This document shows positions 4,096 through 32,561 of a DNA stretch of 32,561 nucleotides, piece by piece (the first letter of the stretch is position 1; each line of letters opens with the position of its first letter). A program made the position numbers and the translations under genes. The stretch lies in IMG/VR virus record IMGVR_UViG_3300001199_000027, positions 1 to 32,561 of that record. The stretch is one strand, 5' to 3'. Below the pieces are notes generated by a model. It made no database searches, had not been told where the DNA came from, and saw nothing but the letters and a program-made list of their open reading frames with translations. The stretch comes from a virus.

Positions 4096-4098
4096 CCT

Positions 4099-4572: not shown

Positions 4573-4579
4573 CCCCTCT

Positions 4580-5029
4580 ATGTCACGCCTCTCCGGTCCG
4601 ATCAAAGATGAGATCATCACCATCCTGCAAGAGCTGAAGGACGCCGATATAATCGGTGCATACCTCGCTGACGATCTCTCGCCGAATCCGCTCTCGATGG
4701 ATTTCCCCGGCTATCCCTGCATCGTCCTGGGCATGTGCTCGCAGGAGTCCGGATACGAAACGAACCAGCAGAACATGCGCACGTATGAGTATCCGCTCCT
4801 GATCGTCGCGCGTCCGGATAGCTATAAAAACGATCCGAAGGGATTCGAGAACTTCATCGACGACATCTCTGATGCCTTCGATAATAAGTTCGATCTGAAT
4901 GGAAAAGCGAACGGAGGCGTGGATGCGACCTTCACTCGGCCGGCCCCTATCAACAGCTCCGACAACACGTACCTCGTCACCTTTGCTATCATTAGAGCAA
5001 GGGCCGTCGTGGACCTAACCCTCAACTAA
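4580..5029 (+). CDS. Putative neck / tail-terminator-like protein
   Basis: 149-aa ORF between the gp10-like gene and the major tail protein. Assignment is by position only. Confidence 0.45.
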   Translation: MSRLSGPIKDEIITILQELKDADIIGAYLADDLSPNPLSMDFPGYPCIVLGMCSQESGYETNQQNMRTYEYPLLIVARPDSYKNDPKGFENFIDDISDAFDNKFDLNGKANGGVDATFTRPAPINSSDNTYLVTFAIIRARAVVDLTLN

Positions 5030-5035
5030 AACTCT

Positions 5036-5248
5036 ATGATCGAATCCGCAAGAAATAAGGATATGGGCGCACCGAAGAGCGAATACTTTTTCGCTGGATC
5101 GACGCAGTACCTACCGATCACGATCACTGCAGCGTCTCTCGCTGAAGCGACCGAGGAGTGGAAGAAGGTGCGGGTTTCATGCGACCAGGACTCCACCGAA
5201 GCACCTACGGCCGAGGAGAAGCCGCAGATTATAACCGAAGATATTTAA
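5036..5248 (+). CDS. Hypothetical small protein
   Basis: 70-aa ORF filling the gap before the major tail gene, on the same strand and tightly packed. Confidence 0.5.
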   Translation: MIESARNKDMGAPKSEYFFAGSTQYLPITITAASLAEATEEWKKVRVSCDQDSTEAPTAEEKPQIITEDI

Positions 5249-5257
5249 TACCCACTT

Positions 5258-6975: not shown

Positions 6976-8745
6976 ATGGACTCACGTACTCTACAGATCG
7001 TCCTTCAGCTAAAAGACCAGGCATCCGCCGGGTTTAAAAAGCTGAATGACTCACTGAAGCAAAACGAGGCGACGATCAAGGGCGTGGGCGTAGCATCCGC
7101 AGCAGTATTTGCGGGCCTCGGCGCGATCGCGGCGAAGTCGATCTCCGACTATGGGGATGCAGAAAAATCGGCGAAGCAGCTCGAGCATGCCGTGATCGAT
7201 GTTTCACATGCAACACAGGCGCAGCTCGCAGCGACGTCTGATCTCGCTGACGCCCTCGAGCGGAAGGGCGTGCTCGATGGAGACAATATCAAGATGGGCC
7301 TCGCGCAGCTCTCTACCTTCGGCCTCTCGAATACGGCCGTCCAGGGCCTCGCAGGATCTCTCGCGGACCTTGCCGTGAACCAGTTCGGCGTGAATGCCTC
7401 CGGAGAGCAGCTCTCTGATACGGCCAACATGATTGCCAAAGCGCTGAATGGGCAGTTCGGCGTGCTCGAGAAGAGCGGTATCCGCTTCAACGAAGCGCAG
7501 CGGCATATGATAATGTTCGGCACCGAGATGGAGAAGGTGAAAGCGATCAATGAAGGTTTCTCGCAAAACCTGAAGTACACGAATGACGTCGCCCTCACCA
7601 CGATGGAAGGCAAGCTCGCGAAGGCGAAGGTGCAGCTCGGCAACATTTCCGAGGCACTCGGCGGATCGCTGCAGGAGGCACTGAACTCGACGCTCGTCGT
7701 GCTCGCCCCATTCATTCAGAAGCTCCTGGATTTCGTCACGGCGCACCCGAAGATCGTCGCGGCGATATTCGGTATCGTTGCTGCAGTCACCGGCCTGACC
7801 GCCGTCGTCTCTGCGCTTGCTCTGGCAACAGTCGCATTCACAGCAGTCGCTTGGCCGATCGTCGGAATCATTGCTCTCATTGTTGCCGGCATCATCGCTC
7901 TCGTTGCGATCGGATACGAACTGTATACGCACTGGGACCAGATCAAGGCATTCGCCATCGAGGTCTGGGGATCCATCGCGAACGTATTCACGGAGACCTG
8001 GGCATCGATCTCCGGGACCGTTAGCGGCGCACTGGATGCGATCTTCCAGGTATTCCAGACCGTCTTTAATGCGATCGCGACATTCGTCGGATTCATTATT
8101 AACTTTATAGCGGGAGCGATCATCACGGATCTCGATGCGCTCTTCCCGCACTGGCAGGAGTTTCTCCTGTCCCTATACGACGCCTGGGTAGCGGCGTGGA
8201 TGTCCGTGCTCACATACATCTCAAACGTGGTGCTGCCGGCAATACGCGCGGTCCTAGCATCCATTTCCGAGGCGTGGAGTAGCGCATGGGGAGCGATCAG
8301 CCAGTTCTTCACCGGCGTGTGGAACTCGATAAAGACCACGATCGGCGGCGCGATCGATTACATCATCGACAAGATCAATAGCCTCATTGCGAAGGCGGCC
8401 GAGATCTCCGGAAAGGTCCTCTCTCCGATCCAGAAAGCGCTCTCTGCAGCAGGAGGTGCTACCTCTTCGGCCGGCAAGGCAGTAGGGTCCGCGATCAATG
8501 CCGTCGCAGCGACCGGCGCGAAGGTCACGAAAGTGAACGATGCAGTGATCACTCCGAACGGCCAGGTGATCCAGACGCATCCGGACGATTACCTTTTCGC
8601 GACGAAGACACCGGGCAGCATGGGAGGAGGCAGCGTGATCGTGCAGATCATGGGCGGATACTATCTCGATCAGGGCGCAGCGACAGAGATCGGCAATGCG
8701 CTCGCGAAACAGATCGGGCAGCAGCTCAAGCTAAGGACGATCTAG
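6976..8745 (+). CDS. Tape measure protein
   Basis: 589 aa, the largest tail-module ORF. The N-terminal half is helical and Ala/Leu/Gln-rich. A long hydrophobic central stretch (AAIFGIVAAVTGLTAVVSALALATVAFTAVAWPIVGIIALIVAGIIALVAIG) follows. It sits right after the G/GT pair. Confidence 0.85.
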   Translation: MDSRTLQIVLQLKDQASAGFKKLNDSLKQNEATIKGVGVASAAVFAGLGAIAAKSISDYGDAEKSAKQLEHAVIDVSHATQAQLAATSDLADALERKGVLDGDNIKMGLAQLSTFGLSNTAVQGLAGSLADLAVNQFGVNASGEQLSDTANMIAKALNGQFGVLEKSGIRFNEAQRHMIMFGTEMEKVKAINEGFSQNLKYTNDVALTTMEGKLAKAKVQLGNISEALGGSLQEALNSTLVVLAPFIQKLLDFVTAHPKIVAAIFGIVAAVTGLTAVVSALALATVAFTAVAWPIVGIIALIVAGIIALVAIGYELYTHWDQIKAFAIEVWGSIANVFTETWASISGTVSGALDAIFQVFQTVFNAIATFVGFIINFIAGAIITDLDALFPHWQEFLLSLYDAWVAAWMSVLTYISNVVLPAIRAVLASISEAWSSAWGAISQFFTGVWNSIKTTIGGAIDYIIDKINSLIAKAAEISGKVLSPIQKALSAAGGATSSAGKAVGSAINAVAATGAKVTKVNDAVITPNGQVIQTHPDDYLFATKTPGSMGGGSVIVQIMGGYYLDQGAATEIGNALAKQIGQQLKLRTI

Positions 8746-10222: not shown

Positions 10223-10870
10223 ATGCAGCACCGCATCTCCACACCCGATCTCCTCGAACCGAAGGGTATGATCCGTCTCAAGACGTACCGCGCCGGTACG
10301 ATCGATGCCATGATGCCGCATCTACTACTCGCGCGTCGGCTTCGTCATGCGGCCGGTGACGGCCAGGGAATCATCCGCTCAAAGATGATGGAGCGCGTTA
10401 TTGCAGCCGATGCTCTCGTGAAGCAGATCCTCGAGGAAGGATTCATCGAGACTGCCGTCGAATGCCCGAACCTGATCATGCAGGGAGCGCTCACAGGAAA
10501 GGATCTCTTCGTTCAGTATCTCTGCGCGACAGGTCTCGTCGGTGCGACCATCTATCCAGGAGGCATTAACTATGCGGGAATCGGATCCGGATCTACCGCT
10601 CCGACCGTTTCCGACACGCAGCTTCAGACCGAGGTGGTCCGCGTCGCGATCGCGAATGCCATCGACTTCGGATATAACCAGGCGCAGCTTCAGTTCTTTT
10701 TCACTGACGCTCTGCTTGCGAATGGCACTTACCGCGAGGTGGGCACATTCATGAATGCGACAGGCACAGCGAACTCCGGGAAAATCTTCAACCGATCGCT
10801 CCTCGGCACGCCGTACGTGAAGACGACCGGCATCGATACGACGCTCGAGGTCGATATAACTCTCACTTAA
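10223..10870 (+). CDS. Tail tip/fiber-associated protein. Its C-terminal domain is paralogous to that of 27103..27735.
   Basis: 215 aa (an alternative start exists at 10268). The C-terminal motif IGSGSTAPTVSDTQLQTEV ... EVGTFMNAT ... TLEVDITLT is shared with the 27103 ORF. Confidence 0.6.
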   Translation: MQHRISTPDLLEPKGMIRLKTYRAGTIDAMMPHLLLARRLRHAAGDGQGIIRSKMMERVIAADALVKQILEEGFIETAVECPNLIMQGALTGKDLFVQYLCATGLVGATIYPGGINYAGIGSGSTAPTVSDTQLQTEVVRVAIANAIDFGYNQAQLQFFFTDALLANGTYREVGTFMNATGTANSGKIFNRSLLGTPYVKTTGIDTTLEVDITLT

Positions 10871-12515: not shown

Positions 12516-13562
12516 ATGAACCCTATCGACATACTTGGCGTACATCCTTCAGGCGCTCACGCCCGCGCATTTGATGAAAGAGACTATGGACTCGGATCAC
12601 CCGAGATCGGCCAGGCAATAGAACCGTTCAACTGGAAAGAGGGATACGACATCGAGAAGGATCTCGATTTCATTCTCCCTACGAAGGATCAGGGCTCTGC
12701 CGGATCCTGCGGAGGAGAGACGATCTCCGAATACGCACAAACGATCACTTCAGCATTCCTGCATGAGACGAGCGAGAAGAGCGCGAAGGCGCACTATTCA
12801 CAGGTCTTCGTTCCCGGAGGCGGATCTAACTCTCGTGCACTCGGCGATGTGTGCGTGAAGCAAGGTTTTTATAAAGAAGCTCTGGTCCCTTCCTACCCGA
12901 AGCCAGGCGTACCGCCTACCGAGGCGTTCATGGAGCGCGCAGCAGACATCAGCGCAGCAGCTCGAGCTGACGCAGCAAAGACGGCCGGCCTCGTCGCATA
13001 CGTGTACCCGGCGATCAACATCGATGTGATGGCCGCAGCGATGAAGGCGAACAAGGGCATACTGATCGGCATTCACGGATCGAATAACGGCACCTGGCTC
13101 TCCTCACATCCTTCGCCGAAGCAGGTCGGAGATTTCTGGGCGCATTTCATGTTCGGCGGAAAGGCCGGCATCGTAAAAGGGAAGAAGGGTATCTGGGCAA
13201 AGCAGTCCTGGGGAGCTGACTGCGCTCCGGATACGAACGGCTGGCAGTTCATCAGCGAGGATCATTTCACTGCAGGAAGGATCTGGGATGCGATGGTCCT
13301 GGTATACAGCGAGAAGCCAGTCAAACCTCATCACGTCTTCAGTGTGGATATTGCATACGGCCAGACGAGCGAGGAAGTCGCAGCGCTGCAGAACACACTC
13401 GCAGCGGACGGTTGCTTCAACCTCGCACCGACCGGATACTACGGCGACATCACGGCGCAAGCGGTTCTGAAGTTCCGCGTGAAGCACGGCGTCGATTCCT
13501 CAACGGATCCGAAAGGCCGCATCGTAGGACCGCGCACGCGCTCCGCTCTGAATGCGCTCTAA
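12516..13562 (+). CDS. Endolysin: papain-like (C1-type) cysteine peptidase domain plus a C-terminal PG_binding_1 domain
   Basis: DQGSAGSCGG (Cys codon at 12708..12710), then AHFMFGG...GKKGIWAKQSWG, which is like papain H...GxxYWxxKNSWG. The C-terminus EEVAALQNTLAADGCFNLAPTGYYGDITAQAVLKFRVKHGV is a classic peptidoglycan-binding repeat. Confidence 0.8.
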   Translation: MNPIDILGVHPSGAHARAFDERDYGLGSPEIGQAIEPFNWKEGYDIEKDLDFILPTKDQGSAGSCGGETISEYAQTITSAFLHETSEKSAKAHYSQVFVPGGGSNSRALGDVCVKQGFYKEALVPSYPKPGVPPTEAFMERAADISAAARADAAKTAGLVAYVYPAINIDVMAAAMKANKGILIGIHGSNNGTWLSSHPSPKQVGDFWAHFMFGGKAGIVKGKKGIWAKQSWGADCAPDTNGWQFISEDHFTAGRIWDAMVLVYSEKPVKPHHVFSVDIAYGQTSEEVAALQNTLAADGCFNLAPTGYYGDITAQAVLKFRVKHGVDSSTDPKGRIVGPRTRSALNAL

Positions 13563-16308: not shown

Positions 16309-17067
16309 AATGAAGAAATCATGACGACCTCCATGCAATATCCGGATTTCCTGATCATCCCGTACCAGCTCCTCGCTGATGCGAACCTGGTCGCGAGCGA
16401 TCGGATCGTCTATGCGATCGTGTACTGGTTCGCGAACATGAAGCTCGAGAAGTGCACGGCGAGCAACGTCACCCTCGGGAAGTTCTCCATGATCGACCCG
16501 AAGCAGGTAGGGAAATGCCTGGTCCGCCTCGAGGAGAATGGCTACATCCAGAGGATCTATTCGGATCCAGAGACCATGAAGAATCGGACCGAGATCGTGC
16601 CCCTGGTCGCCTTCACGAAGAACGTCGTCGGCAAGGGGTACCGCCTGCAGGCGGTACCGCCTGGAAGCGGAACTGGTACCGCCCACAGGCGGATCAACGT
16701 ACCGCCTGCAGGCGGACAGAGAAGTAATACTAAAAGTAAAAGGAATAGTATTGCGGCATCCGCCGCGGCGGCCACTCCGGCTCCGCCATTCAATGCAACG
16801 GAAACGAAGACCAAATGGTACGAGGGAGACAAGGAAGACTTTCAGCTCCTCGCCTGGTTTTTCGATCAGAAGGGCCTCTGGAAGAAGTTCGACTCCCGTG
16901 CGAAGGTAGAGCACGCGGTCCAGCGCCACATCCGGAGCTGCCGCCGGATCGTGAATGCCGGATGGAGCCAGGGCGAGTGCGAGAAGGCAGCCAGCAAGAT
17001 GAAGGAGAACGAGAAGCTCCGATCCGAATGGACGCTCGAGACGCTTGAAAAATATCTAACAAAATAA
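16291..17067 (+). CDS. Replication initiator-like protein (N-terminal winged HTH, low-complexity linker, C-terminal domain), analogous to lambda O
   Basis: LIIPYQLLADANLVASDRIVYAIVYWFANMKLEKCTASNVTLGKFSMIDPKQVGKCLVRLEENGYIQR is wHTH-like. Iterons and an AT-rich stretch lie inside the ORF. The true start may be ATG 16321, because 16291 lies within the regulatory motif. Confidence 0.65.
   Translation: MPTAPHNEEIMTTSMQYPDFLIIPYQLLADANLVASDRIVYAIVYWFANMKLEKCTASNVTLGKFSMIDPKQVGKCLVRLEENGYIQRIYSDPETMKNRTEIVPLVAFTKNVVGKGYRLQAVPPGSGTGTAHRRINVPPAGGQRSNTKSKRNSIAASAAAATPAPPFNATETKTKWYEGDKEDFQLLAWFFDQKGLWKKFDSRAKVEHAVQRHIRSCRRIVNAGWSQGECEKAASKMKENEKLRSEWTLETLEKYLTK
16639..16771. repeat. Candidate replication origin: four 16-nt iterons, an AT-rich unwinding stretch and a related palindrome
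   Basis: TACCGCCTGCAGGCGG at 16639 and 16700. TACCGCCTGGAAGCGG at 16655. TACCGCCCACAGGCGG at 16677. An AT-rich 33-mer at 16720..16752 has 7 G/C. CCGCCGCGGCGG at 16760..16771. Confidence 0.65.
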
Positions 17068-21922: not shown

Positions 21923-22579
21923 ATGCCGATCATCCCGTACCGAAAGGAAGAGGAGATCATGAAAGTGATCCGCCGCGCAATGATCAAAGACCCGATGTAC
22001 ACCACTACCGGGATCCAGATCGCGCTAGCAAAAGCTGGATACGAGACATCATCCGGACATGCTCTTCATCGGCAGTACGTGGAGAAACTGATGCGGAAGA
22101 TCAAGGCAGGCGCCGAGCATTACTCCTCACATGAGCTCGAGCTCGAGCGCATCACGAAGACGCGTGAACGATACAACCTCGTCGCAGAGAGGCTCTTTAA
22201 GATCGCCTTCTGGGATCTCGACTCACTGCGCGAAATGATCCCCATGCCTACCGTTGGAGAGCAGGTATCAGCGCTCAAGGCCATCGTGGAGCTCGATCTG
22301 AAACTGTTCGAGGCAGAGCGCATCGCGGGCCTATTCATGAAGCAGGGCGAGAAGCTGGGCGATGCAGAGTGGAGATTCCGCCCTATGCCGTCCGAGTTCT
22401 ACGAGAACGTGGTGAAGGCATTCTCATCGCATGGCTTCGGACCCGATCGTTTGAAAGAGATCGCTGCACGGGCCGATGCAGCGCGTGCAGCCGCAGCAAC
22501 CCCGATACATGGAACCGATATCACCTCTACCCTCATCCCCGCAGCCGCAAGCGCCGCAAAGCCTGGCGTGGTGGGATAA
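21923..22579 (+). CDS. Putative terminase small subunit
   Basis: 218 aa, directly upstream of and overlapping the large terminase ORF. The N-terminus looks HTH-like (TTGIQIALAKAGYETSSGHALHRQYVEKLM) and the middle is helical. Assignment is mainly positional. Confidence 0.5.
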   Translation: MPIIPYRKEEEIMKVIRRAMIKDPMYTTTGIQIALAKAGYETSSGHALHRQYVEKLMRKIKAGAEHYSSHELELERITKTRERYNLVAERLFKIAFWDLDSLREMIPMPTVGEQVSALKAIVELDLKLFEAERIAGLFMKQGEKLGDAEWRFRPMPSEFYENVVKAFSSHGFGPDRLKEIAARADAARAAAATPIHGTDITSTLIPAAASAAKPGVVG

Positions 22580-22613
22580 CACCCCCTTTAATGATTTCTA
22601 TTTCCGCCAGGAG

Positions 22614-24002
22614 ATGCGGAAGACGCTCGAGGGTTTCTGCCTGGTGTATCTGCCGCATTACTTTTACCTTCCGCCTCCTGATCATGAGCACGAGCTGCTC
22701 ACGGCCCTGGACGACGACGAGCTCAAGCGCCTGCTGATCCTCGGCTTCCGCGGATCGGGAAAGTCGACGGACGGATCACTGGCCCTGCCGCTATACGCTG
22801 CGCTAGAGAAGCCGGATCTCTACCCCTTCATCGTTCCGATCGCCGATACCGGCATGCAGGCAGCACTGAACATCGCCTCGATCAAGTACGAGCTCGAGAA
22901 CAACTGGCTGCTGATAAACGATTACGGGCACATCCCTACCAAGCGCGTGCACGATCAGTCTCCGGAGCCGACGCTCGAGAGTGAAGAGGAATGGCAGGCG
23001 AAGAACCTGCTGCTCGATACCGGCGTGCGTATCCTCGCTCGATCAACCGGACAGAAAGTCCGCGGTATCCGTCATAGGCAGCATCGTCCGAGCCTGGTGA
23101 TCCTCGACGACCCGGAGGACCTCAAGCGCGTGAAGACGAAAGAGAGTCGCGATGCTAGTGATAGCTGGCTGCGCGGCGAAGTGCTGCCTGCAGTAGATCA
23201 GAAGCGCGGCCGTGTGATCGTGATCGGGAACCTGCTGCACATGGATTCGCTGATGGCTCGCCTGCGATCCCGCGGGACGTTCACCACGCTCGAGTACGCA
23301 CTGCTGCGCCCAGGAGACGAACCGGAGCTCGAGCGCTGCACCTGGAAAGCAATGTTTCCCACGCAGGCAGATCTCGATGCGAAGCGGAAGGATATGGGAG
23401 AAGTGTCCTGGCACCGCGAGATGCTGCTCGAGGTCGTCGCTGAAGAGGGACAGGTGATCACTCCCGAGGACATCACGTACTACGACGAGATCCCGGAAGC
23501 GCCCCGCGGCTTCATCGGTCATGGCGTGGACCTTGCGATCGGAAAGAAAACAACGAACGACTATACGGCCGTGGTATCCGGAGACGTGCGATACGTGGAG
23601 GATCGGCCATTCGTCTTCGTGCTGCCGAACGTGATCAACGCCCGGATGGATTTCCATACGACGATAGGGACCCTGGCCGAGATGCCTCGAGCCGGAGGCG
23701 TGCATCTATTCTGCGTGGAGAACGTCGCATATCAGGCCGCAGCTCTGCAGGAGATGGAACGCATGATGCTCGCCGTACGCCCTATGCGCCCGAACACGGA
23801 CAAGCGTGCACGTCTGACCGTCGCATCGACGTACATCAAGAACGGGACCGTACGCTTCCCTCGCACCGGCTGCGAAGCCTTGCTCGCGCAGCTCTTCGGC
23901 TTCGGTGCAGAGAGCCATGACGACATGGTAGACGCCCTGGTGTATCTGATCCTCGGTCTCGCAGAGGAAGGCATCGACCTTCCCCAAGTACACAGCCTCT
24001 AG
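22614..24002 (+). CDS. Terminase large subunit
   Basis: Walker A GFRGSGKST, Walker B LVILDDPED, and a C-terminal nuclease-like segment (CVENVAYQAA...ESHDDMVDALVYLI). The ORF is open from 22476. ATG 22614 is the first start after the upstream stop, so the start is uncertain. Confidence 0.85.
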   Translation: MRKTLEGFCLVYLPHYFYLPPPDHEHELLTALDDDELKRLLILGFRGSGKSTDGSLALPLYAALEKPDLYPFIVPIADTGMQAALNIASIKYELENNWLLINDYGHIPTKRVHDQSPEPTLESEEEWQAKNLLLDTGVRILARSTGQKVRGIRHRQHRPSLVILDDPEDLKRVKTKESRDASDSWLRGEVLPAVDQKRGRVIVIGNLLHMDSLMARLRSRGTFTTLEYALLRPGDEPELERCTWKAMFPTQADLDAKRKDMGEVSWHREMLLEVVAEEGQVITPEDITYYDEIPEAPRGFIGHGVDLAIGKKTTNDYTAVVSGDVRYVEDRPFVFVLPNVINARMDFHTTIGTLAEMPRAGGVHLFCVENVAYQAAALQEMERMMLAVRPMRPNTDKRARLTVASTYIKNGTVRFPRTGCEALLAQLFGFGAESHDDMVDALVYLILGLAEEGIDLPQVHSL

Positions 24003-24020: not shown

Positions 24021-24347
24021 ATGGGATATACTCAAAATATGGAACTACTCACGCATAGCGTGCGCCGCGTCGCATCTCCCGACGATCTGCAGCTACCCGG
24101 GGACTATACGATCACTGATCATCTCGAGACCGGCGGCAAGATCTGCCACTCGGTCATTCTCAACTGCGCATTTTGCAATACCCCGAACGGCCTCGTCATG
24201 CCGCAGCCGAATGTGATCCAGCGCGTATTCGCCTTCCTGGTCCGTGGGATCCGCCCGCTCACCATTCCCGGCGTGATCGTGTGCTACGGCAATACTAAGC
24301 ACCGCTTCGCCGTGCGGAAAGGCGCAATAATCCCAGCCATCGTATGA
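24021..24347 (+). CDS. Hypothetical protein between terminase and portal
   Basis: 108-aa ORF with an ATGA overlap onto the portal gene. Confidence 0.55.
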   Translation: MGYTQNMELLTHSVRRVASPDDLQLPGDYTITDHLETGGKICHSVILNCAFCNTPNGLVMPQPNVIQRVFAFLVRGIRPLTIPGVIVCYGNTKHRFAVRKGAIIPAIV

Positions 24348-26704
24348 ACATTCGAGAACAGGCCGCAGAGGTGATCGGAAAAGGTGCAGCAACCGTCATG
24401 CGCTGGATAGCGCCTACCATCGAGGATTTCCCTACCAGCTACGTCTTCGGAGCGAAGGGGATCATGCCCGGAAAGGACATGCCCGGAGGAACGGACGGCA
24501 TGGTGCTCTGGCGCCCGAGCTCTGGCAAGCGCGTCTCTGCTGCTGCAGCCATGGCTCGCAATACCGGCTGGGTATATGCCGCTACCAAGGCGATCGCTGA
24601 CGAGATCGGAAACATCGAATGGCGCCTCTTCCGGATCATGGGCAACGACGACCAGGAGGAGCTCTTCGATAACGAAGCGTTGGATCTGCTCAATGGCGTG
24701 AACGAGCATCAGACCGGCGTGGAGTTTAAGCACCTGATCGCCTCGCATCTCGAGATCACCGGAAACGCCTACATCCTCATGCTCGGCGCTGACGGCAAGC
24801 CGGTAGCATCGTACACGGATAAGCCGAGCTCCATGACGCTGCTCGATCCATCGCGCGTTTCTCTCACATTCGACAAGAGCAGCTATCCGTACATCGTCAC
24901 CGGATACCGCTTCGTATTCGAGGGCCGTGAGTGGACCTATGCGCCGGAGTGCATTTTGCATATTAAGTATCCGGATCCTAATGATCAGTACGTCGGTATC
25001 GGTACGGTCCAGGGTATCCCTGAATGGCTCGATAACGACCAGGCCGTGCTCGAGTGGAATCGCCAGTTCTTCCTCAAGGGAGCGAAACCATCCGGCACGC
25101 TCACATCGCCGTATAAGACCGAGGCCCAGATCTCTCGCCTGCGTGCAGGGTTCGAGCAGAGCTATGGCGGAGGCATCAAGAGCGGAAACGGGCAGAACGT
25201 CGCCGTACTTCCGGAGGGCGTGAAGTTCACTGCAGACGCTACGCCGAAGGACATGGATTTCGGCACGCTCCTGGACCGCATGAAGGAACGCATCCTCGCC
25301 GGCTTCCGCGTATCGAGCACGATCCTCGGCAGCGCAGAGCAGGATACGAACCGCGCCACTGCGGAGACCGCGGACTATATCTTCGCGAAGCGTACGATCA
25401 AGCCGAAGATGATGCTGATCACTGCATACCTGAACGAGTTCCTGATCCCACGTTTCGGAGAGGATCTCTATCTCTCATTCAATGATCCGGTACCGGAGGA
25501 TAAGGAATACCGCACCACCGAGATGCAGGCCGCAGTCGGCAGCCAGCCGGTGATCTCGATCAACGAGGCCCGTGAGAAGTACATGGGCGCAGGTCCCGTC
25601 GATGGAGGCGATGAGGTGATGGTTAGCACTATGTACCAGCCGCTCGGTGAACCGATCCCAGCAAAGCCAGAGGACGGCGAAGAGAAGGCAGTGATCGATG
25701 TAGAAACGAAGGAGATCGATGCGGAGACGCGCAAGGTAGCGCCGCGCCGTACCAAGTTTACTGCACGACCCGCTGCGGTCCCGGTTTACTACGTGAAGGC
25801 AGGCAAGGTCACGACCCGGCATGCGCGCAATGCGAAGATCCGGGCAGAGCTCTCGGAGGCATTCGCTGAACGCTTCACGAAGCAGCTCGAGGCGATCAAA
25901 GAGAAGAACCTATGGGATCTGACCGATGAGGAGTATTACAACGTCTGGAAGGATTTCGCTTCCCGCGTCGAGAAGTACGAGCATAAGTTCGCCGAGGGCG
26001 TGCGTGATCTGAATGATGATCAGCTCGCGGTAGTGCTCGCGAACCTATCGAACGCGACCGGCGTCACGAAGGACGTGGATCCATCCAAGCTCTTTGACGT
26101 CGACAAGTGGACCTCACTCATGATCGATTTCGCAGGACCGCTCCTCAAGAAGCTAGGCAAGGCTGAAGCCGTGCATGCAGCCAATGCGATCGGGAAGCCG
26201 GAAGCGGCGAACGTATTCGATACGCCTGAACATCAGGCTGCACTCGATAAGTCGATCGCGCTGATGGCTGACTCGTATCAGAAGACCACGCTCGATGCGC
26301 TGAAGGGCAAGCTGGACGAAGGGATCCGCACCGGCGCAACCCTGTCCGAGCTCGAGGCTTCGGTCCGGGATGTATACGCATGGAGCGATGAGCGCCGCGC
26401 TGCGATGATCGCGAAGACCGAGACGTTCCGCATTGCGAACGATACGACGAAGGAGACCTGGAAGGCATCCGGAGTGGTAGAGACGATCAAGTGGTACACG
26501 GCCGAGGACGATAAGGTATGCGGGTACTGCGACGATATGGACGGGACCGTGATCTCGATCAATGAAAACTTCTACGATAAGGGCGATACTGCAGGCTCAA
26601 CCGTTGCCGGAGAATCGATGGATCTCGACTATTCAGACGTCGGTGCGCCTCCGCTGCACCCTGACTGCCGCTGCTACGTTCGACCGGAAACCGTCACCGT
26701 CTAG
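24344..26704 (+). CDS. Portal protein (HK97 family) fused to a MuF / SPP1 gp7-like head morphogenesis domain
   Basis: The N-terminal ~430 aa look portal-like (NTGWVYAATKAIADEIGNIEWRLF...HLEITGNAYILML...). The C-terminus WYTAEDDKVCGYCDDMDGTVI...PPLHPDCRCYVRP is the MuF signature. Confidence 0.85.
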   Translation: MNIREQAAEVIGKGAATVMRWIAPTIEDFPTSYVFGAKGIMPGKDMPGGTDGMVLWRPSSGKRVSAAAAMARNTGWVYAATKAIADEIGNIEWRLFRIMGNDDQEELFDNEALDLLNGVNEHQTGVEFKHLIASHLEITGNAYILMLGADGKPVASYTDKPSSMTLLDPSRVSLTFDKSSYPYIVTGYRFVFEGREWTYAPECILHIKYPDPNDQYVGIGTVQGIPEWLDNDQAVLEWNRQFFLKGAKPSGTLTSPYKTEAQISRLRAGFEQSYGGGIKSGNGQNVAVLPEGVKFTADATPKDMDFGTLLDRMKERILAGFRVSSTILGSAEQDTNRATAETADYIFAKRTIKPKMMLITAYLNEFLIPRFGEDLYLSFNDPVPEDKEYRTTEMQAAVGSQPVISINEAREKYMGAGPVDGGDEVMVSTMYQPLGEPIPAKPEDGEEKAVIDVETKEIDAETRKVAPRRTKFTARPAAVPVYYVKAGKVTTRHARNAKIRAELSEAFAERFTKQLEAIKEKNLWDLTDEEYYNVWKDFASRVEKYEHKFAEGVRDLNDDQLAVVLANLSNATGVTKDVDPSKLFDVDKWTSLMIDFAGPLLKKLGKAEAVHAANAIGKPEAANVFDTPEHQAALDKSIALMADSYQKTTLDALKGKLDEGIRTGATLSELEASVRDVYAWSDERRAAMIAKTETFRIANDTTKETWKASGVVETIKWYTAEDDKVCGYCDDMDGTVISINENFYDKGDTAGSTVAGESMDLDYSDVGAPPLHPDCRCYVRPETVTV

Positions 26705-26760
26705 CCTTATGCACATCCACCATTGCGCACTCGACCGCTCGATGGTGTTAGGATAAATAT

Positions 26761-27093
26761 ATGGAACCAACCGAAGCACCTGTATACACGCTCAACATCA
26801 CGGGAGCCGAGAAGCTCAACGTGCAAGCTGACGACACGACGATCCTTTCAGTCTCTTTCGAGATCCTGAAGAACGGCGAGCATGACGTCACTTACACGCA
26901 TGGCTTCCCGCTCGAAACTTCCGAAGTCGACGTGCGCGCATCTCTCGCAGAGTTCCTCGCCAATTACGAAGCCACCCGCGAGGTGTGGAAGCGGAACGAG
27001 GCTTTCACCGTGGCGAATGCCGCTGCGGATGAGACCATCGCGAAGCTCGTCGGCGAGCCGATTATAAACGAAGAGGAAACCCCAACCGCCTAG
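26761..27093 (+). CDS. Hypothetical acidic protein, first gene of the accessory block
   Basis: 110-aa ORF preceded by TAGGATAAATAT, the same 15-mer (including the ATG) found before the protease gene. Confidence 0.6.
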   Translation: MEPTEAPVYTLNITGAEKLNVQADDTTILSVSFEILKNGEHDVTYTHGFPLETSEVDVRASLAEFLANYEATREVWKRNEAFTVANAAADETIAKLVGEPIINEEETPTA

Positions 27094-27102
27094 CCTATTT
27101 TT

Positions 27103-27735
27103 ATGAATTACGCAGTCAAAGCTACCCCGATCTACGCCGGAATGATCGCCCTGGATACGAACGTCCAGATGCGTCACCTTGATTCCTTCGGAAACGCAAA
27201 GCCGATCTTCCAGGAGTTCGGATTCGTCGGATACCTGATCAAGCACGGATATATCTCTCCGAACTGGATCAACTGGCCGGTGCTCGGTTTCCTCATGCGT
27301 CCCTTCATGGGCTTCTGGTCCGATGTGAAGCACACGCGCAACGGTGTCACCACCGTGGGCAAGGCAGCGGTTGCCGGCCTGATCAACGGAGTCGGTTCGG
27401 TCCCTGTATTCGCCTCTATCGGCCAGGGAACGGGCACCACGGCCTTTGCAGCCGGTGACACGACCCTTCAGACGGAGGTCACGGCAGCGGGAGGCGCAGC
27501 ATCCGGTGTGCATGCCGTTGCGGCAGCTACCGCTTCGCTCGTCACCACGACGACCACGAACGATACCTCACAACTCGTGGGAACCGTTTCCGAAGCAGCG
27601 ACGATCGCCATCACTGAATCAGGCGTCTTCAACGCAACGACGAACGGCACGCTCCTCTGCCGCCAGACATTCACGGCAGTGAACGTGGTATCAGGTGACT
27701 CTCTGCAGTTCACTTGGAAGGTGAAAGCAGCCTAA
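27103..27735 (+). CDS. Hypothetical structural-type protein. Its C-terminal domain is paralogous to 10223..10870.
   Basis: The C-terminal IGQGTGTTAFAAGDTTLQTEV ... ESGVFNATTNGTLL ... DSLQFTWKVKA aligns by eye with the tail-tip ORF. Confidence 0.6.
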   Translation: MNYAVKATPIYAGMIALDTNVQMRHLDSFGNAKPIFQEFGFVGYLIKHGYISPNWINWPVLGFLMRPFMGFWSDVKHTRNGVTTVGKAAVAGLINGVGSVPVFASIGQGTGTTAFAAGDTTLQTEVTAAGGAASGVHAVAAATASLVTTTTTNDTSQLVGTVSEAATIAITESGVFNATTNGTLLCRQTFTAVNVVSGDSLQFTWKVKAA

Positions 27736-27811
27736 ACTTGGACTTTCCTTCTATCCCTCTCGGGGGATAGGGATGTGAGCCTAAGACTCTTATAAAGATA
27801 AATTCACTAGA

Positions 27812-28321
27812 ATGGCACTCTACTTAATCGCAAACGGACCAGCACCGACTACCGCTGCACAGGCACCCGTCACGACAGGTACGGCCATCAAGACGCTTCT
27901 GCAGGTGAAGGCAGGCGCGACCATCGTCGCGAAGATCAAGGAATGGGGAGTCTCATTCGATGGATCAGCCGCAGCTACCCCGATCAAGGCAGAGCTCCTG
28001 CAGACAGACGTCGCTGCGACCGTGACTGCACACGTTGCGGCCGGCATCGTGAAGCAGGATGGCAACGCTCTCGCGGGCGGAGATCCTACGACCGCACTCA
28101 TCGAAGTCGGTACTGCAGCGACCGGATACACCGCTAGCGCAGAGGGTACGATCACGGCGACCCGCGTATTCGATGCGCAGTTCGTCGCACCTACTAACCA
28201 GTACATCAAGCAGTACCCTCTCGGCCTCGAGCCGGTCATAGAGATCGGAAAGTTCGGCCGCATCCGTGTCACTGCAGGCGCAGCCGTAAACGCATACGCC
28301 TACATGATCGTGGAGGTATAA
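27812..28321 (+). CDS. Hypothetical beta-rich protein, possibly an abundant virion or decoration component
   Basis: 169 aa, rich in Ala/Thr/Val/Gly. It has its own upstream TATAAAGATAAAT and a strong downstream hairpin. Confidence 0.55.
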   Translation: MALYLIANGPAPTTAAQAPVTTGTAIKTLLQVKAGATIVAKIKEWGVSFDGSAAATPIKAELLQTDVAATVTAHVAAGIVKQDGNALAGGDPTTALIEVGTAATGYTASAEGTITATRVFDAQFVAPTNQYIKQYPLGLEPVIEIGKFGRIRVTAGAAVNAYAYMIVEV

Positions 28322-28455
28322 TGAAGATAGGATTATCCACTTAACCGATACCACGATGATCACTTTCATCACGTATATGGGACACCTATACGCTTGCACA
28401 GCTACGGCTTGCTCGCTCATAGGGGGTCACGTATTCATGCCTTTCTAGGGCAATT

Positions 28456-28491
28456 AACAGCACGCGCACCAGGAATGGTGCGCGTGCTGTT
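28456..28491 (+). terminator. Strong hairpin (16-bp perfect stem, GGAA loop), likely a terminator or insulator before the sulfation cassette
   Basis: aacagcacgcgcacca-ggaa-tggtgcgcgtgctgtt, followed by atactg. The next ATG (28503) is 11 nt downstream. Confidence 0.65.
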
Positions 28492-28502
28492 ATACTGAAA
28501 TT

Positions 28503-28823
28503 ATGATCACTTGGCTAACGGGAAACAGTGGTGCCGGCAAGACGACACTCGCGCACCAAATGCGAAAGCACGAGATCATTCTCGACGGTGATGAGATGCG
28601 AGCAGTATGGCCGGGCCTCGGTCTCACACCTAAAGATCGTCGTGAACAGAATCTTCGTGTCGCACGTCTCGCTAAGACGCTAGAGCTGCAGGGATTCGAT
28701 GTGATCGTTGCCACGATCTGCCCATTCAAGAAGCTGCGCGAGGAGGTGCAGGAGATCACCGGCTGCCGGTTCATCTACCTCGAAGGAGGCCGTGAAGGCG
28801 CAGCATACCCTTACGAAAAATAA
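28503..28823 (+). CDS. Adenylylsulfate (APS) kinase-like P-loop protein, short form
   Basis: ITWLTGNSGAGKTTLA / ILDGDEMR / LTPKDRREQNLRVARLAKTLELQGFDVIVATICPF aligns by eye with CysC VLWFTGLSGSGKSTVA / LLDGDNVR / [35 protein letters not shown]. Confidence 0.7.
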   Translation: MITWLTGNSGAGKTTLAHQMRKHEIILDGDEMRAVWPGLGLTPKDRREQNLRVARLAKTLELQGFDVIVATICPFKKLREEVQEITGCRFIYLEGGREGAAYPYEK

Positions 28824-28834
28824 CTTTTACTGCT

Positions 28835-29257
28835 ATGTGGACGGCCAAGATTACGGATACGAGACTGGTTAATGGAGTGATGCAGGTCACGGTTGAATAT
28901 TCGTGCGAGGATGGAAATATATTTACGGATACGATCACCAGCACGCAGAAGCAGGGAGAGGAGTGGCCGAACAGCATCATCCAGGATCGACTCAAGCACC
29001 TAAGCACCTTTCCAGAGAAGATCGCCGAGCTTGATGCGCGCAAAGAGGAAGTGATAGCTCCGGTAGTCGAGCGCAGGCAGGACGAGCAGATGGGTCAAGC
29101 GAAGAAAGAATATAAAGAAAAGCTGGCGATATTCCACGCATACGTGGTGGCAATTTCCCGCGGATTTACTGGCACCGAGACGCAGGACTTCCTAGAACTT
29201 AAGGGGTATCTCACTGACAATTTCAAACCCGAATATCTCGATTTATTCGGCACCTAG
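28835..29257 (+). CDS. Hypothetical protein between the kinase and the sulfotransferase
   Basis: 140-aa ORF. I recognised no motif. Confidence 0.6.
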   Translation: MWTAKITDTRLVNGVMQVTVEYSCEDGNIFTDTITSTQKQGEEWPNSIIQDRLKHLSTFPEKIAELDARKEEVIAPVVERRQDEQMGQAKKEYKEKLAIFHAYVVAISRGFTGTETQDFLELKGYLTDNFKPEYLDLFGT

Positions 29258-29262
29258 CGCCT

Positions 29263-29847
29263 ATGGATCCCGTCTACCTCATTTCGAGCTTTCGACGGAG
29301 TGGCTCGTCGATGATGGCACGCTGCCTAGAGGGCGGCGGCCTTCCAGTCGTGAAGATGTCGCTCAATGATTCGGAATACAATATTCCGTTTGGCAATACT
29401 GGGTATATTCCTAACCCGAACGGATTCTATTCGATCGAGGGCTATATGGAGTTCGACTTCCCAACATTCTACGAAGAATATAAAGGGCAGGTTTTAAAGA
29501 TACCGCGTACATACATCCGGCTATTGCCTCCTGGAAAATATAAGCTGATATTCATGAATCGCGACGAGAAAGAGATCCTTGCATCCTATCGATCGTTCAT
29601 CGGCTTGCGTGACTGGGGAGAAGTGGAGTCGTCCGTATATTTAAAAGATGTGATATTAGGAGCTGAAAAACAGATCGCAGCAGAGCGTGGTGACATCGAT
29701 ATTATCGAGGTTAATTATAATGAGCTGATGCGAGATCCGCGCGCTGCTTTCGATGCAATTGTTGATTTCGGAGTACCTATTGATCCTGCGGCGGCCGCCG
29801 CTCTCGTTGATCCCGCACTTTATCGGCATCGTTTAGCTGCAAAATAA
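29263..29847 (+). CDS. Sulfotransferase (PAPS-dependent fold)
   Basis: The 5'-PSB-like loop ISSFRRSGSSMM is at 29284..29310. The 3'-PB-like NRDEKEILASYRSF (29560..29586) compares with RNPKDVAVSYYHF of cytosolic sulfotransferases. Confidence 0.7.
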   Translation: MDPVYLISSFRRSGSSMMARCLEGGGLPVVKMSLNDSEYNIPFGNTGYIPNPNGFYSIEGYMEFDFPTFYEEYKGQVLKIPRTYIRLLPPGKYKLIFMNRDEKEILASYRSFIGLRDWGEVESSVYLKDVILGAEKQIAAERGDIDIIEVNYNELMRDPRAAFDAIVDFGVPIDPAAAAALVDPALYRHRLAAK

Positions 29848-29848
29848 T

Positions 29849-30415
29849 ATGGCTACTTCCGGACCAAACTTCCCGACCACGGCGGTTGATGATGCAACCC
29901 AGGGCACTTTGGCGTGGACTAACCCTGGAAATGTGATGGTGGAGGACGGTATCTTTGCTACGCGTTCAGTCTCACCCTCAACGATAACCCACTTTATTAA
30001 GACGACAGGGTACGGATTTTCCATTCCGGCAGGAGCGACTATCGACGGAATCCTTGCAGAAGTGAAGGTAAAGGGAGCTGATACCCAGTCGACTGATAGC
30101 GCTGTAAAAATAGTGCAGGGCGGCACCATAGGAGGAACCGATCAGTCGACTAATGTGCAATTAAGTACCACTCTCGCATATAGAAGTTTCGGAGGCGCAG
30201 CGAATCTATGGGGACTAACCTGGACGGATACCGATATAAATAGTTCAGGCTTTGGATTTTGCTATTCCGTGCGACGAGGAACATCAGAGACATCCTCTAC
30301 CGCGAGCGTCGATGCTATGCGCTTGACCGTATATTACACGCCTTCAGGTGGTGGATCCGTGCAGCAGTCGCAGACCAGAGTCATGCAGGCAATAAATCGC
30401 GCAGCAACGTACTAA
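29849..30415 (+). CDS. Hypothetical beta-rich protein (fiber or adhesin accessory?)
   Basis: 188-aa ORF, Thr/Ser/Gly-rich (…LAWTNPGNVMVEDGIFA…), sitting between the sulfotransferase and the repeat protein. Confidence 0.6.
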   Translation: MATSGPNFPTTAVDDATQGTLAWTNPGNVMVEDGIFATRSVSPSTITHFIKTTGYGFSIPAGATIDGILAEVKVKGADTQSTDSAVKIVQGGTIGGTDQSTNVQLSTTLAYRSFGGAANLWGLTWTDTDINSSGFGFCYSVRRGTSETSSTASVDAMRLTVYYTPSGGGSVQQSQTRVMQAINRAATY

Positions 30416-30424
30416 TATAGAAAT

Positions 30425-31843
30425 ATGGCACGCCTCGGACGAGCACAACCTTTCAAGCCTCTCGTGCAGGCTTTTCGTATTCCCGGTCCCTCGAACTATT
30501 CGCAGGTGTTGGATGAGACGATCACGTTCACCGATTCAATATCGAGGAGTGCAGCACGTCTCTTTTCAGAGACGATCACCTATACGGATACGCTTGCCCG
30601 GCAGGCATTAAAATCATTGCTCGAGACCGTCACGTATACCGATACGCTTGCAAAGATAGCGGCTAAATCGTTCCTAGGGAGCGAGACGATCACCTTCACG
30701 GATACGATGATTCGCAGATCCACAAAGGTCCTATCGGACACGATCACCTATACAGACTCTCTCATCCGATCCATCAGCCGATCTCTCATCGAGACGGTGA
30801 CTTTCACCGATACCTTGCTGAAGCAGGCCACTCGTACTCTCACCGAGACGATCACCTATACAGACTCTCTACTGAAGCGTAGCGGGAAAGTGCTCTCGGA
30901 CACCATGACGTTTACGGACACGCTCATCCGCAGCACAGCTCGTGCACTCACGGAGACGATCACCCTGACCGATACCGTCCTTAAGCAGCTCACCCGAGCG
31001 CTCACAGAAACCATCACCTATACGGATACCGTCGCTCGTCTGGCCGTGCTCACCAAGGCATGCAGCGAAGTGATCGCCTTCACGGACACGCTCGCACGAT
31101 CGACCACGCGCGTCCTTTCGGAGATCGTGACCTATACGGATACCCTGGCGAAGCAGATCCTCCGGACGCTGCTCGAGACTGTCACGTATACGGATAGCTT
31201 CAATGCAGTGAAAGTGACGGCGAAGCTGCTCACCGAGACGATCACGTTCACGGACAGTCTTATACGCCTCGCTGGCAAGGTTCTTTCGGACACGCTGACC
31301 CTGACCGATACGATCATCCGCCGGACCACGCGCGTGCTCACCGAGACTCTGACGCTCACGGATACCATCGTACGCCAGCTCTCCCGATCTCTTTCGGAGG
31401 TGATCACATATACGGATTCCTTGCTACGCCAAGGCGGAAAGGTCCTCGCAGAGACGATCACGTATACCGATGCGCTCACCAAGCGCGCAACGAAGCTGCT
31501 CTCGGATACCGTCTCATTCGTCGATACGATCGCAACGGTTCTCACCTCGGGAGTGATCTCGAAGGTTCTGACCGAAACGATCACATTCACCGATAGCATG
31601 GTGCGCCGTAGTGGGAAGGTGCTCACCGAGACTCTGACGCTCCTCGATACACTCACGCGCCGAACTTCACGCGTATTCTCTGAAGTGATCTCCTTCATCG
31701 ATACGATCGTTTTCGGCACTGTCCCCATCCTCGCTTCATATACGCTGCGTCTCCTGTATCCAGTGGGCGTTATAATAAAACAAGCGCGCCGCCTCTTTAC
31801 TGCAAAAGCTGAAGATCGCGATCACACTATAAAAAGACAATGA
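30425..31843 (+). CDS. Repeat protein: about 22 tandem 18-aa units with core (E/D)T(I/V/L)T(Y/F/L)TD(T/S). Candidate fiber or solenoid.
   Basis: The translation shows ETITFTDS, ETITYTDT, ETVTYTDT, DTITYTDS and similar, each followed by L.R....(R/K).L(S/T). Confidence 0.8.
   Translation: MARLGRAQPFKPLVQAFRIPGPSNYSQVLDETITFTDSISRSAARLFSETITYTDTLARQALKSLLETVTYTDTLAKIAAKSFLGSETITFTDTMIRRSTKVLSDTITYTDSLIRSISRSLIETVTFTDTLLKQATRTLTETITYTDSLLKRSGKVLSDTMTFTDTLIRSTARALTETITLTDTVLKQLTRALTETITYTDTVARLAVLTKACSEVIAFTDTLARSTTRVLSEIVTYTDTLAKQILRTLLETVTYTDSFNAVKVTAKLLTETITFTDSLIRLAGKVLSDTLTLTDTIIRRTTRVLTETLTLTDTIVRQLSRSLSEVITYTDSLLRQGGKVLAETITYTDALTKRATKLLSDTVSFVDTIATVLTSGVISKVLTETITFTDSMVRRSGKVLTETLTLLDTLTRRTSRVFSEVISFIDTIVFGTVPILASYTLRLLYPVGVIIKQARRLFTAKAEDRDHTIKRQ
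30515..31714 (+). repeat. In-frame tandem repeat array, unit about 54 nt, about 22 copies
   Basis: Recurrent strings include ctcaccgagacgatcac... and acgatcacctatacagactctct (both at ~30741 and ~30853). The period matches the 18-aa protein repeat. Confidence 0.85.
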
Positions 31844-32172
31844 CCAAAATTCGCACCGTACAAAATGACTCTGGATATTCTCTTCAGTTCACGCTGCAGA
31901 ATAACGACGGGACCGCATTCGATCTGACTGGAAACAGCAAGGTCGAGTTCCTCGTGCAGTACGGGACTGCAGCCGCACTCAACGTAGCGGGAGCCATGAC
32001 TGTGACCGGCGCAGCAACTCTCGGAGTCGTGAACTATATCGTCGGCGCTGGCGTGTTCGATGCAGCCGGCGAGTACAACGGAGCGATCCGCGTCACGTTC
32101 GCGAGCGGTCGCGTCGTCACCTTCCCGGACATTGATATCCTCGTTTCTCCGGCGCTCCCGGTGACTCCCTAG
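31840..32172 (+). CDS. Small Ig-like / BppU_N-like domain protein
   Basis: TVQNDSGYSLQFTLQNNDGTAFDLTGNSKVEFLV...GEYNGAIRVTF fits the pattern of phage Ig-like baseplate/fiber accessory domains. ATGA overlap with the repeat gene. Confidence 0.55.
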   Translation: MTKIRTVQNDSGYSLQFTLQNNDGTAFDLTGNSKVEFLVQYGTAAALNVAGAMTVTGAATLGVVNYIVGAGVFDAAGEYNGAIRVTFASGRVVTFPDIDILVSPALPVTP

Positions 32173-32229
32173 ATCTTATGCACACCGAGCAAGCTATATA
32201 GCCGAGATTATTACTGCTAGGATAAATAT

Positions 32230-32561
32230 ATGCACGAAGCACTCATAAAGCTGACTCCTGAATTTCGCGAAAAGTTTGCTGCAGCGATCGGCGCTGCGTC
32301 CTACCTCGAGGTGATCGAGAAGGCGAAGGCTGCAAAAGACTCCGGATCCGATACCGGCCGTTTCCGTGTGATCATCTCAACCGCGGATAAAGACCGCCAG
32401 GGCGAGATCGTGGATCAGAACGGATGGGACACGGAACTTTACATGAAGAATCCAGTGGTCCAGTGGGCCCATGATTACCACACCCCGCCGATCGGTCTCT
32501 GCGATAGTCTCAAGCTCGAGAACGGCCAGCTTGTCGCTGAAGGCTTTTTTGCCCCTGAAGA
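32230..32561 (+). CDS. Prohead protease, 5' part (continues at position 1 after removing the 79-nt overlap; whole gene about 458 aa)
   Basis: MHEALIKLTPEFREKF...GRFRVIISTADKDRQGEIVDQNGWDTELYMKNPVVQWAHDYHTPPIGL is a typical HK97-type protease N-terminus including the catalytic His region. Confidence 0.85.
   Translation, partial: MHEALIKLTPEFREKFAAAIGAASYLEVIEKAKAAKDSGSDTGRFRVIISTADKDRQGEIVDQNGWDTELYMKNPVVQWAHDYHTPPIGLCDSLKLENGQLVAEGFFAPE
32483..32561. repeat. Second copy of the 79-nt terminal overlap
   Basis: Identical to 1..79. Confidence 0.95.

Follow-up and report, generated by a model that had tools for sequence, protein, structure and literature searches.

Introduction

The closest described analogue of the locus analysed here is the "extra structural module" gp34-gp36 of the cultured Alishewanella phage LSH1, all three proteins of which were detected by mass spectrometry of virions (PMC13243795), together with fiber I of the short-tailed Ralstonia phage GP4. 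The LSH1 module comprises an adhesin, a fibril protein like that of GP4 and an immunoglobulin (Ig)-like protein; the adhesin carries a binding or depolymerase domain at its N-terminus and a C-terminal part that AlphaFold cannot model, which the authors of that study suspected of containing a repetitive motif (PMC13243795). The fibril protein of GP4 links the adhesin to the nozzle collar, and the LSH1 fibril protein resembles it (PMC13243795). Here, a 32,561-nt viral sequence was analysed over its whole length (IMG/VR record IMGVR_UViG_3300001199_000027, positions 1 to 32,561; hereafter the window), in which the open reading frame (ORF) 30425-31843 (+), starting with ATG, encodes a 472-amino-acid (aa) protein made of tandem Thr-rich units of mostly 18 aa. 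This repeat protein probably forms the shaft, or spacer, of an accessory adhesion fibre of the virion that is modular and split between separate proteins. Like the LSH1 and GP4 systems, the window module looks accessory and non-essential and brings together a probable adhesin, a candidate gp80-like fibril protein and a putative Ig-like protein, a likeness drawn from the description of the LSH1 module. Unlike them, it contains a 169-aa jelly-roll protein, its binding domain is split off, and its similarity to gp80 lies below threshold. The LSH1-related phages Slicko01 and Slickus01 gave no tblastn match to the repeat, provided that the searched collection includes these genomes.

Other fibrous proteins share single features with this protein. 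The capsid fibres T4 Hoc, phi29 gp8.5 and SPP1 gp12 are encoded among head genes. In tentaclins, a binding (lectin) domain at the N-terminus is followed by a repetitive spacer and, at the C-terminus, by a short anchor (PMC10743442). Tentaclins and capsid fibres resemble the proposed fibre in being accessory adhesins with spacers of variable length, but their spacers are Ig domains, a helix-turn-helix supercoil or collagen rather than an 18-aa Thr-rich unit, they share no sequence similarity with the window protein, and no diversity-generating element was seen in the window. Triple beta-spiral shafts, such as those of the adenovirus fibre and reovirus sigma1, are built of repeats of ~15 aa in which hydrophobic residues alternate; each repeat has two strands and a tight, obligatory Gly/Pro turn, and the number of repeats sets the length. 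The window unit differs from these in its 18-aa period, its one long predicted strand, a Gly/Pro residue in only about one third of turns, an invariant Asp and the lack of a family match. TxT or TxTxTxT arrays are known from insect antifreeze proteins and beta-solenoid ice-binding proteins; the window repeat likewise has Thr at alternating positions over many rungs, but its unit cannot close a coil alone, and it stands in a phage-fibre context with lectin domains.

A Thr-rich array of 22 units

The repeat protein is divided as follows.

30425..30514, + strand: N-terminal 30 aa with the conserved start MARLGRAQPFKP (motif MAR[LF]GR..P)
30515..31735, + strand: 22 tandem 18-aa units, aa 31-437 (three of 20 aa, one of 23 aa), from a regular expression and self-identity
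31736..31843, + strand: 35-aa C-terminal hydrophobic/basic tail ..VIIKQARRLFTAKAEDRDHTIKRQ and stop codon, from the sequence and an AlphaFold model

A regular expression for the core motif counted exactly 22 units, spaced by 18 aa (17 times), 20 aa (three times) and 23 aa (once), with the consensus E-T-[IVL]-T-[Y/F/L]-T-D-[TS]-[LIV]-x-[RK]-x-x-x-[RK]-x-L-[ST]. Together with per-position counts, it confirmed the length, unit number, unit pattern and central-residue counts (Y 9, F 9 and L 4 at position 5) of a first-pass annotation made from the DNA alone. D7 is invariant (22/22), Thr occupies positions 2, 4 and 6 in 18-19 of the 22 units, and T/S8 is present in 21; the other recurrent residues are E/D1, I/V/L3, L/I9, R/K11, R/K15, L17 and S/T18. 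The T-x-T pattern behind the Thr ladder of that annotation is thus real, and the ladder may plausibly lie on one side of a strand; the second half of the unit is indeed basic, with Arg or Lys at positions 11 and 15. Among 10,000 residue shuffles, the motif matched 0.003 times on average and once at most, and self-identity of the protein was 0.39 at lag 18 versus ~0.05 at lags 15, 17, 19 and 21.

Units are pairwise 43% identical in protein, 51% in DNA and 35% at third codon positions. DNA copies 54 nt apart within the array are 60-82% identical, and Tandem Repeats Finder (TRF) did not detect the array at the DNA level. The higher identity of protein than of third positions, together with the TRF result, indicates that the array is old, has been under purifying selection and has not expanded recently. 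An antisense ORF inside the repeat gene (31132-31728, - strand, 198 aa, V/S/R-rich) mirrors the repeat and is therefore a periodic-codon artefact rather than a gene.

Both ends of the protein are set apart from the array. The start MARLGRAQPFKP is common to the repeat proteins of the window and of two syntenic metagenomic contigs, L004 and L007, and its motif was found in the L004 ortholog and in 7 of 251 homologs (P0005, P0015, P0039, P0053, P0055, P0098 and P0256). The C-terminal region scores best in the AlphaFold model (helices 416-430 and 441-471; predicted local distance difference test (pLDDT) of the block up to 72), and several types of short tail occur at the C-terminus of homologs. 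The tail is a candidate docking or oligomerisation segment.

A widespread repeat family of uncultured phages

The first-pass annotation did not recognise the repeat as a described fibre repeat, and this was borne out: the protein has no real match in Pfam, NCBIfam or the sequences and profiles of the PDB, and none among the cultured phages of INPHARED by tblastn or protein search. In PHROGs, one family of unknown function matches it (phrog_12240, E 1.5e-12), as do, weakly, two tape-measure families (phrog_305, E 1.2e-4; phrog_167, E 2e-3). A first search of a metagenomic protein collection returned 126 homologs, and an exhaustive phmmer search gave 4,794 representatives (clusters at 50% identity) at E<=1e-3, 1,838 at E<=1e-10 and 216 at E<=1e-30, many of them 1,000 to ~3,900 aa long. 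The contigs of homologs span 38-64% GC, and their bins are labelled Patescibacteria, Burkholderiales, Gemmatimonadetes and Blastocatellia. Uncultured phages thus share a widespread 18-residue repeat that has so far gone undescribed and probably builds fibres.

The family consensus, built from 490 units of 120 homologs and the window protein, is E-T-[IVL]-T-[hydrophobic]-T-D-[TS]-[LIV]-[ILV]-[KR]-x-x-x-[KR]-[VTI]-[LF]-[ST]. Across 2,941 units, position 5 is L in 39%, I in 13%, V in 11%, F in 6%, A in 6%, H in 5% and Y in 2.4%, so that Leu, Ile and Val together make up 63%. Each protein has its own preference at this position, namely Y/F in the window protein and P0001, L in L004, H/L in L007 and I/V in L002 and L015, suggesting a packed position and no conserved modification site. 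Judging from this family-wide composition, the fallback offered in the first-pass annotation, that the Y/F/L position is a core residue, is the better reading.

In some homologs, position 5 is mostly His (P0004, P0025 and the L007 protein at 4056-5684, with ETVTHTDT and His in 9/16 units). Metal binding by such a His ladder is a possibility.

Fused and split versions of the proposed fibre

Architecture was compared in 232 homologs with recognisable units, which have a median of 11 and a maximum of 42 units, a non-repeat N-terminus of 345 aa (median) and a C-terminal tail of 58 aa (median). Repeat blocks lie more than 40 aa apart in 114 of the 232, as expected from inserted domains, and the inserted arrangement was read directly in P0023, P0069, P0015, P0091 and L007. 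The domains added to the repeats include LamG (6/62 members), DUF2341 and a Kelch propeller, with F5/8C and others on record; the lectin-like ones (LamG, Kelch and jelly rolls) are usually N-terminal to the repeats or inserted in them. Just nine of the 232 homologs consist of repeats only, as the window protein does.

The gene directly upstream of the window repeat gene encodes such a domain on its own.

29849..30415, + strand: 188-aa protein, W-x-NP-x-N / DLWG-type beta domain with a short tail ..TRVMQAINRAATY

This protein is 44% identical (E 5e-43) to the domain inserted in the P0023 shaft (aa 204-383), and the same domain is inserted in P0091; a PDB sequence search with it gave no match. 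In P0023, the inserted domain is followed by half a repeat unit, and the tail of the 188-aa protein aligns to it. In L007, a different domain is involved: the gene upstream of the repeat gene encodes 244 aa and matches, at 49% identity (E 8e-51), the N-terminal domain of P0025, a homolog in which domain and repeats are fused. The upstream proteins of the window, L004 and L007 thus have unrelated domains, and they end in similar C-terminal tails (..QAINRAATY, ..RQAVKRAASY and ..RQAIKRSYFF). These alignments identify the 188-aa protein as the likely detached binding-domain partner of the shaft, and we infer that its tail docks the domain onto it. Fusion of the 188-aa and repeat ORFs by read-through or frameshift was considered and rejected because the frame relation is not conserved, the two ORFs being in the same frame in the window and in different frames in L004 and L007.

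Partner genes and synteny of the probable fibre module

Four further genes of the window belong to the module.

26761..27093, + strand: 110-aa protein opening the module, with homologs before the 210-aa gene in L004, L007 and L011
27103..27735, + strand: fibre-like protein of 210 aa, matching phrog_5417 (E 6e-13) and, weakly, the GP4 fiber I gp80 family (PF23140)
27812..28321, + strand: 169-aa jelly-roll protein (AlphaFold predicted template modelling score (pTM) 0.73, beta sandwich)
31840..32172, + strand: 110-aa BppU_N-like (Ig-like) protein whose start overlaps the repeat-gene stop (PF10651, E 1.3e-4)

In all ten independent loci, namely the window and L001, L002/3, L004, L006, L007, L011, L013, L014 and L015, the repeat gene has a homolog of the 210-aa gene upstream of it. 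These include SU10-like short-tailed contigs (L001, L002/3), long-tailed ones (L004, L007), a prophage in a 1.14-Mb contig (L006) and giant repeat proteins of 1,837 and 3,699 aa (L014 and L015). In L004 and L007, the order is that of the window: 100-aa, 210-aa, 169-aa, variable-domain gene and repeat gene. The L004 module is flanked by the capsid gene and a Mu gp36-like gene, and that of L007 lies upstream of a tail-terminator gene. Among INPHARED proteins, the 210-aa protein has one weak match, a "tail collar fiber protein".

The 169-aa protein is 66-78% identical in L002/3, L004, L007, L012 and L013, whose contigs range from 38 to 64% GC. It belongs to a group of more than 7,221 clusters at 90% identity, and the relatives among the 120 matches listed are almost all exactly 169 aa long, 74-89% identical and mostly on phage-sized contigs of 30-45 kb. 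It has no annotation anywhere and no match among PDB sequences or INPHARED proteins. With its model, BFVD returned only uncharacterised phage proteins (TM 0.55-0.67), and the PDB just weak TNF-like or viral jelly rolls. For the Ig-like protein, PF10651 scores 22.2 bits against a cut-off of 23.1; in L011, a 42%-identical homolog, with PF10651 on record, directly follows a 1,097-aa repeat gene.

A second, divergent copy of the 210-aa gene is found among the tail-tip genes at 10223-10870 (+), following that of the distal tail protein (phrog_5417, E 1.2e-8; 22% identical). A paralogous relation between the small 110-aa and 140-aa proteins was considered and dropped (BLASTP E 0.16).

Genome context

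Bases 1-79 of the window are identical to bases 32483-32561, and this exact 79-nt direct terminal repeat marks the window as a complete phage genome with a unit length of 32,482 bp. It is a long-tailed phage with all late genes on the + strand, in the following order.

22476-24002: terminase (family searches)
24344-26704: portal fused to a MuF domain (family searches)
26761-32172: block containing the fibre module, after the portal
111-1124: scaffold/protease, across the genome ends (family searches)
1136-2323: major capsid protein (family searches)
5258-6442: tail tube, after the adaptors (family searches)
6976-8745: tape measure protein, in the canonical place after the tail tube (phrog_58, E 3e-33)
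12516-13562: endolysin, after the distal tail genes (family searches)

The fibre block therefore lies in the head-gene region, between the portal and the scaffold/capsid genes and apart from the tail-tip genes, a position suggestive of a fibre on the head or neck. No DNA match for 24344-32561 was found in INPHARED cultured phages, and a scan of 26600-32561 for promoters and terminators found fewer sites than in shuffles.

Two other repetitive stretches were seen in the window. The ORF right after the capsid gene (2304-2756, +) contains Glu/Thr-rich tandem repeats of 18 nt at 2565-2736 (TRF 2576-2647; direct repeats D8 and D9) and has no family match. In the replication-gene region, 16- and 22-nt tandem repeats at 16631-16716 (GGTACCGCCTGCAGGCGGAACAA) could be iterons or an origin.

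Proposed fold of the repeat and a model of the fibre

In the AlphaFold2 monomer (alignment of 62 sequences), the protein consists of strands of 13-15 residues and turns of 3-7 residues, with helices at the C-terminus only; long hairpins were thus obtained at low confidence, and no solenoid. Turn residues include Pro at position 13 (9%) and Gly at position 14 (22%). Variation in unit length maps between positions 11 and 15: family-wide, 68% of units have 18 aa, 23% have 20 aa and 5% have 19 aa, and lengths of 21, 22 and 25 aa account for at most 1% each. The preference for an addition of two residues keeps the strand faces in register and is the even-number bias expected of hairpins. The unit has mirror symmetry around T4 and position 13 (score 1.26 versus a mean of -0.41, SD 0.54), a feature that fits antiparallel pairing and would be expected just as much of an amphipathic helix. 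Covariation in side-chain volume from one unit to the next, used to tell hairpin from parallel stacking, was discarded because centring within short runs produced artefactual negative correlations.

In the proposed fibre, each unit would form one long beta strand of about 15 residues, from position 15 to position 11 of the next unit, and a tight turn at 12-14. T2, T4, T6 and T8 would point to one side of the strand and I3, Y/F/L5, L9 and L17 to the other, between E1/D7 and R11/K15. Successive units would stack into an elongated, probably oligomeric beta structure that holds a carbohydrate-binding-type domain away from the particle. This domain, fused N-terminally or inserted in most relatives, would in the window phage be supplied by the upstream 188-aa protein, whose half-repeat-like tail may rest on the shaft. 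The fibre would probably be assembled with the 210-aa fibre-like, 169-aa jelly-roll and 110-aa Ig-like proteins.

Several observations weigh against this interpretation. The repeat has no carrier among cultured phages, and we infer, rather than observe, the presence of the protein in virions. Its model is poor (pLDDT 47, pTM 0.28), and Foldseek found no match at E<=0.001 with it, as expected from such a model. The PF23140 matches (E 0.005 for the 210-aa protein, and 0.0008) all fall below the curated cut-off, and PDB searches with the sequence and with a profile of the 210-aa protein found nothing, the profile not reaching the GP4 gp80 entry 8JOU. As for a head or neck location, the module is placed where tail genes sit in the short-tailed contigs. 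Finally, a period of 3.6 residues dominates the hydrophobicity of the family profile (Fourier power 48.7 versus 3.4 at period 2), exactly as an amphipathic alpha-helix with 18 residues in five turns would give.

The sulfotransferase cassette

Between the 169-aa and 188-aa genes, the window carries an inserted cassette.

28503..29847, + strand: inserted cassette, whole
28503-28823, + strand: short APS kinase (PF01583, E 1e-16)
28835-29257, + strand: 140-aa protein with homologs in L008, L009 and L010
29263-29847, + strand: sulfotransferase (PF13469, E 4e-5)

The first-pass annotation placed the repeat gene immediately downstream of the sulfotransferase gene. Its distance of 578 nt is arithmetically right, but the interval is filled by the 188-aa ORF, and the repeat gene is therefore not directly downstream. 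The 106-aa APS kinase covers positions 4-97 of the 152-position Pfam model and lacks the C-terminal third; an APS kinase of 109 aa in L008 is 69% identical, indicating a conserved short form and not a broken gene.

Thirteen homologs of the sulfotransferase, at 37-61% identity, were found and traced on three longer contigs. The order of 140-aa homolog, sulfotransferase and 188-aa homolog is kept in all three (L008, L009 and L010), with the APS kinase also present in L008, and the repeat is absent from all three. Conversely, none of the nine other repeat loci (L001-L007, L011 and L013-L015) has a sulfotransferase match, and the same fibre module occurs without the APS kinase, 140-aa and sulfotransferase genes in L004, the closest syntenic phage, and without the cassette in L007. 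The cassette thus travels with the 188-aa domain and not with the repeats. The copies of this domain in L008 and L009 lack the ..QA..RA..Y tail, which means that in the window phage a sulfotransferase-linked domain has been joined to a putative fibre-docking tail. If the sulfotransferase has a partner here, it would be the 188-aa domain or its ligand, not the Thr/Tyr ladder, and the cassette and the 188-aa protein could form a phage-borne sulfation system. The cassettes of L008-L010 adjoin genes for GT2, methyltransferase and M23 peptidase, and that of L008 also a CTP_transf_like gene.

Alternative explanations

The 3.6-residue period leads to an unlikely alternative, in which the array is a continuous amphipathic alpha-helix of 18 residues per five turns forming a straight coiled-coil stalk with the same function. 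Its core would consist of L17, I3, T6, I10 and position 13, with E1, D7, R11 and K15 as i/i+4 salt bridges on the opposite face. The hydrophobic moment (0.43-0.60 at 100 degrees versus 0.02-0.19 at 170-180 degrees) and the mirror symmetry about positions 4 and 13 agree with such a helix, and the sole weak sequence matches are to helical proteins, namely designed helical repeats, viral heptad regions and the tape measure PHROGs. However, Gly at 14 and Pro at 13 would fall in the centre of the core, each unit has four Thr and many beta-branched residues, and AlphaFold, which is prone to long helices, gave strands. The length variants also speak against it, because those in use are +2 (23%) and +1 (5%), whereas the tolerated +3, +4 and +7 make up at most 1% each. 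Insertions of two residues were not accommodated in a helical coiled coil and gave beta-layers, and insertions of one residue were demanding (Hartmann et al. 2016; PMC4786415). An alpha/beta coiled coil with such beta-layers was rejected, since its [aliphatic]-A-T-K-[polar]-[DE] motif and nonad/hexad spacing do not fit the unit. On the sequence and the model, a beta-hairpin ribbon is more likely than the 18/5 helix. A single-chain beta-solenoid, as the first-pass annotation suggested by analogy with ice-binding proteins, would make the repeats themselves the adhesin, with a flat Thr array binding a regular surface such as ice, crystalline polysaccharide or an S-layer. The T-x-T-x-T-x-T formed by T2, T4, T6 and T8 in nearly every unit and the lack of a binding domain in the window repeat protein would suit it. 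Each unit, however, has a single turn and insertion site (12-14) where at least two corners are needed, so one unit cannot close a coil; AlphaFold gave hairpins, if at low confidence, and the relatives nearly always add lectin-like domains, one of which is encoded next door here. The solenoid is accordingly improbable.

The proposal that the neighbouring sulfotransferase, or another phage modification enzyme, acts on the Thr/Tyr ladder, so that a modified fibre alters host binding, starts from the presence of a 3'-phosphoadenosine 5'-phosphosulfate (PAPS)-type sulfotransferase, along with a short APS kinase, in one block of late genes with the repeat gene and from the acidic residues around the window Tyr (E at -4, D at +2). 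A 360-aa gene directly before the L007 module (679-1761) looks glycosyltransferase-like (GT-B type) by eye, without a Pfam match, and in P0039, encoded on a contig of 1.8 kb, the repeats are followed by a terminal GT2 fragment. Nevertheless, Tyr is rare at position 5 in the family and swaps with Phe and Leu within the window protein; repeat and sulfotransferase do not co-occur in the other loci, the syntenic L004 module has no cassette, and the conserved neighbours of the sulfotransferase are the 140-aa and 188-aa homologs. The ladder is thus a very doubtful substrate, and the first-pass suggestion of its sulfation finds no backing in the family. A tape-measure-like or internal, ejected protein, to which the weak phrog_305 and phrog_167 matches point, is hardly credible: the phage already has a clear tape measure protein at 6976-8745, gene order contradicts it, and homologs of the repeat are fused to lectin-like domains.

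Beyond the split-fibre interpretation, a bolder version of it may be put forward tentatively. The E-T-x-T-x-T-D unit might represent a new fibrous fold, a long mirror-symmetric beta-hairpin ribbon with a face of Thr only, that serves many phage lineages as a universal shaft of up to ~3,900 aa for interchangeable lectin-type domains, either fused or docked in trans through a half-repeat tail. In addition, phage enzymes, for example those of the sulfotransferase cassette, might modify the Thr face or the docked 188-aa domain.

Conclusions

The cells to which a phage can attach are determined by its fibres. The repeat, its 210-aa partner and the 169-aa protein are abundant in metagenomes, unnamed, and without a solved structure or a cultured host system, and recognising the unit would give an annotation handle on thousands of "hypothetical" fibre genes. 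The window module offers a clear natural case of one fibre in a fused and a split (domain plus shaft) version, and it redirects the sulfotransferase question to the 188-aa domain, a better candidate for the study of phage-encoded sulfation.

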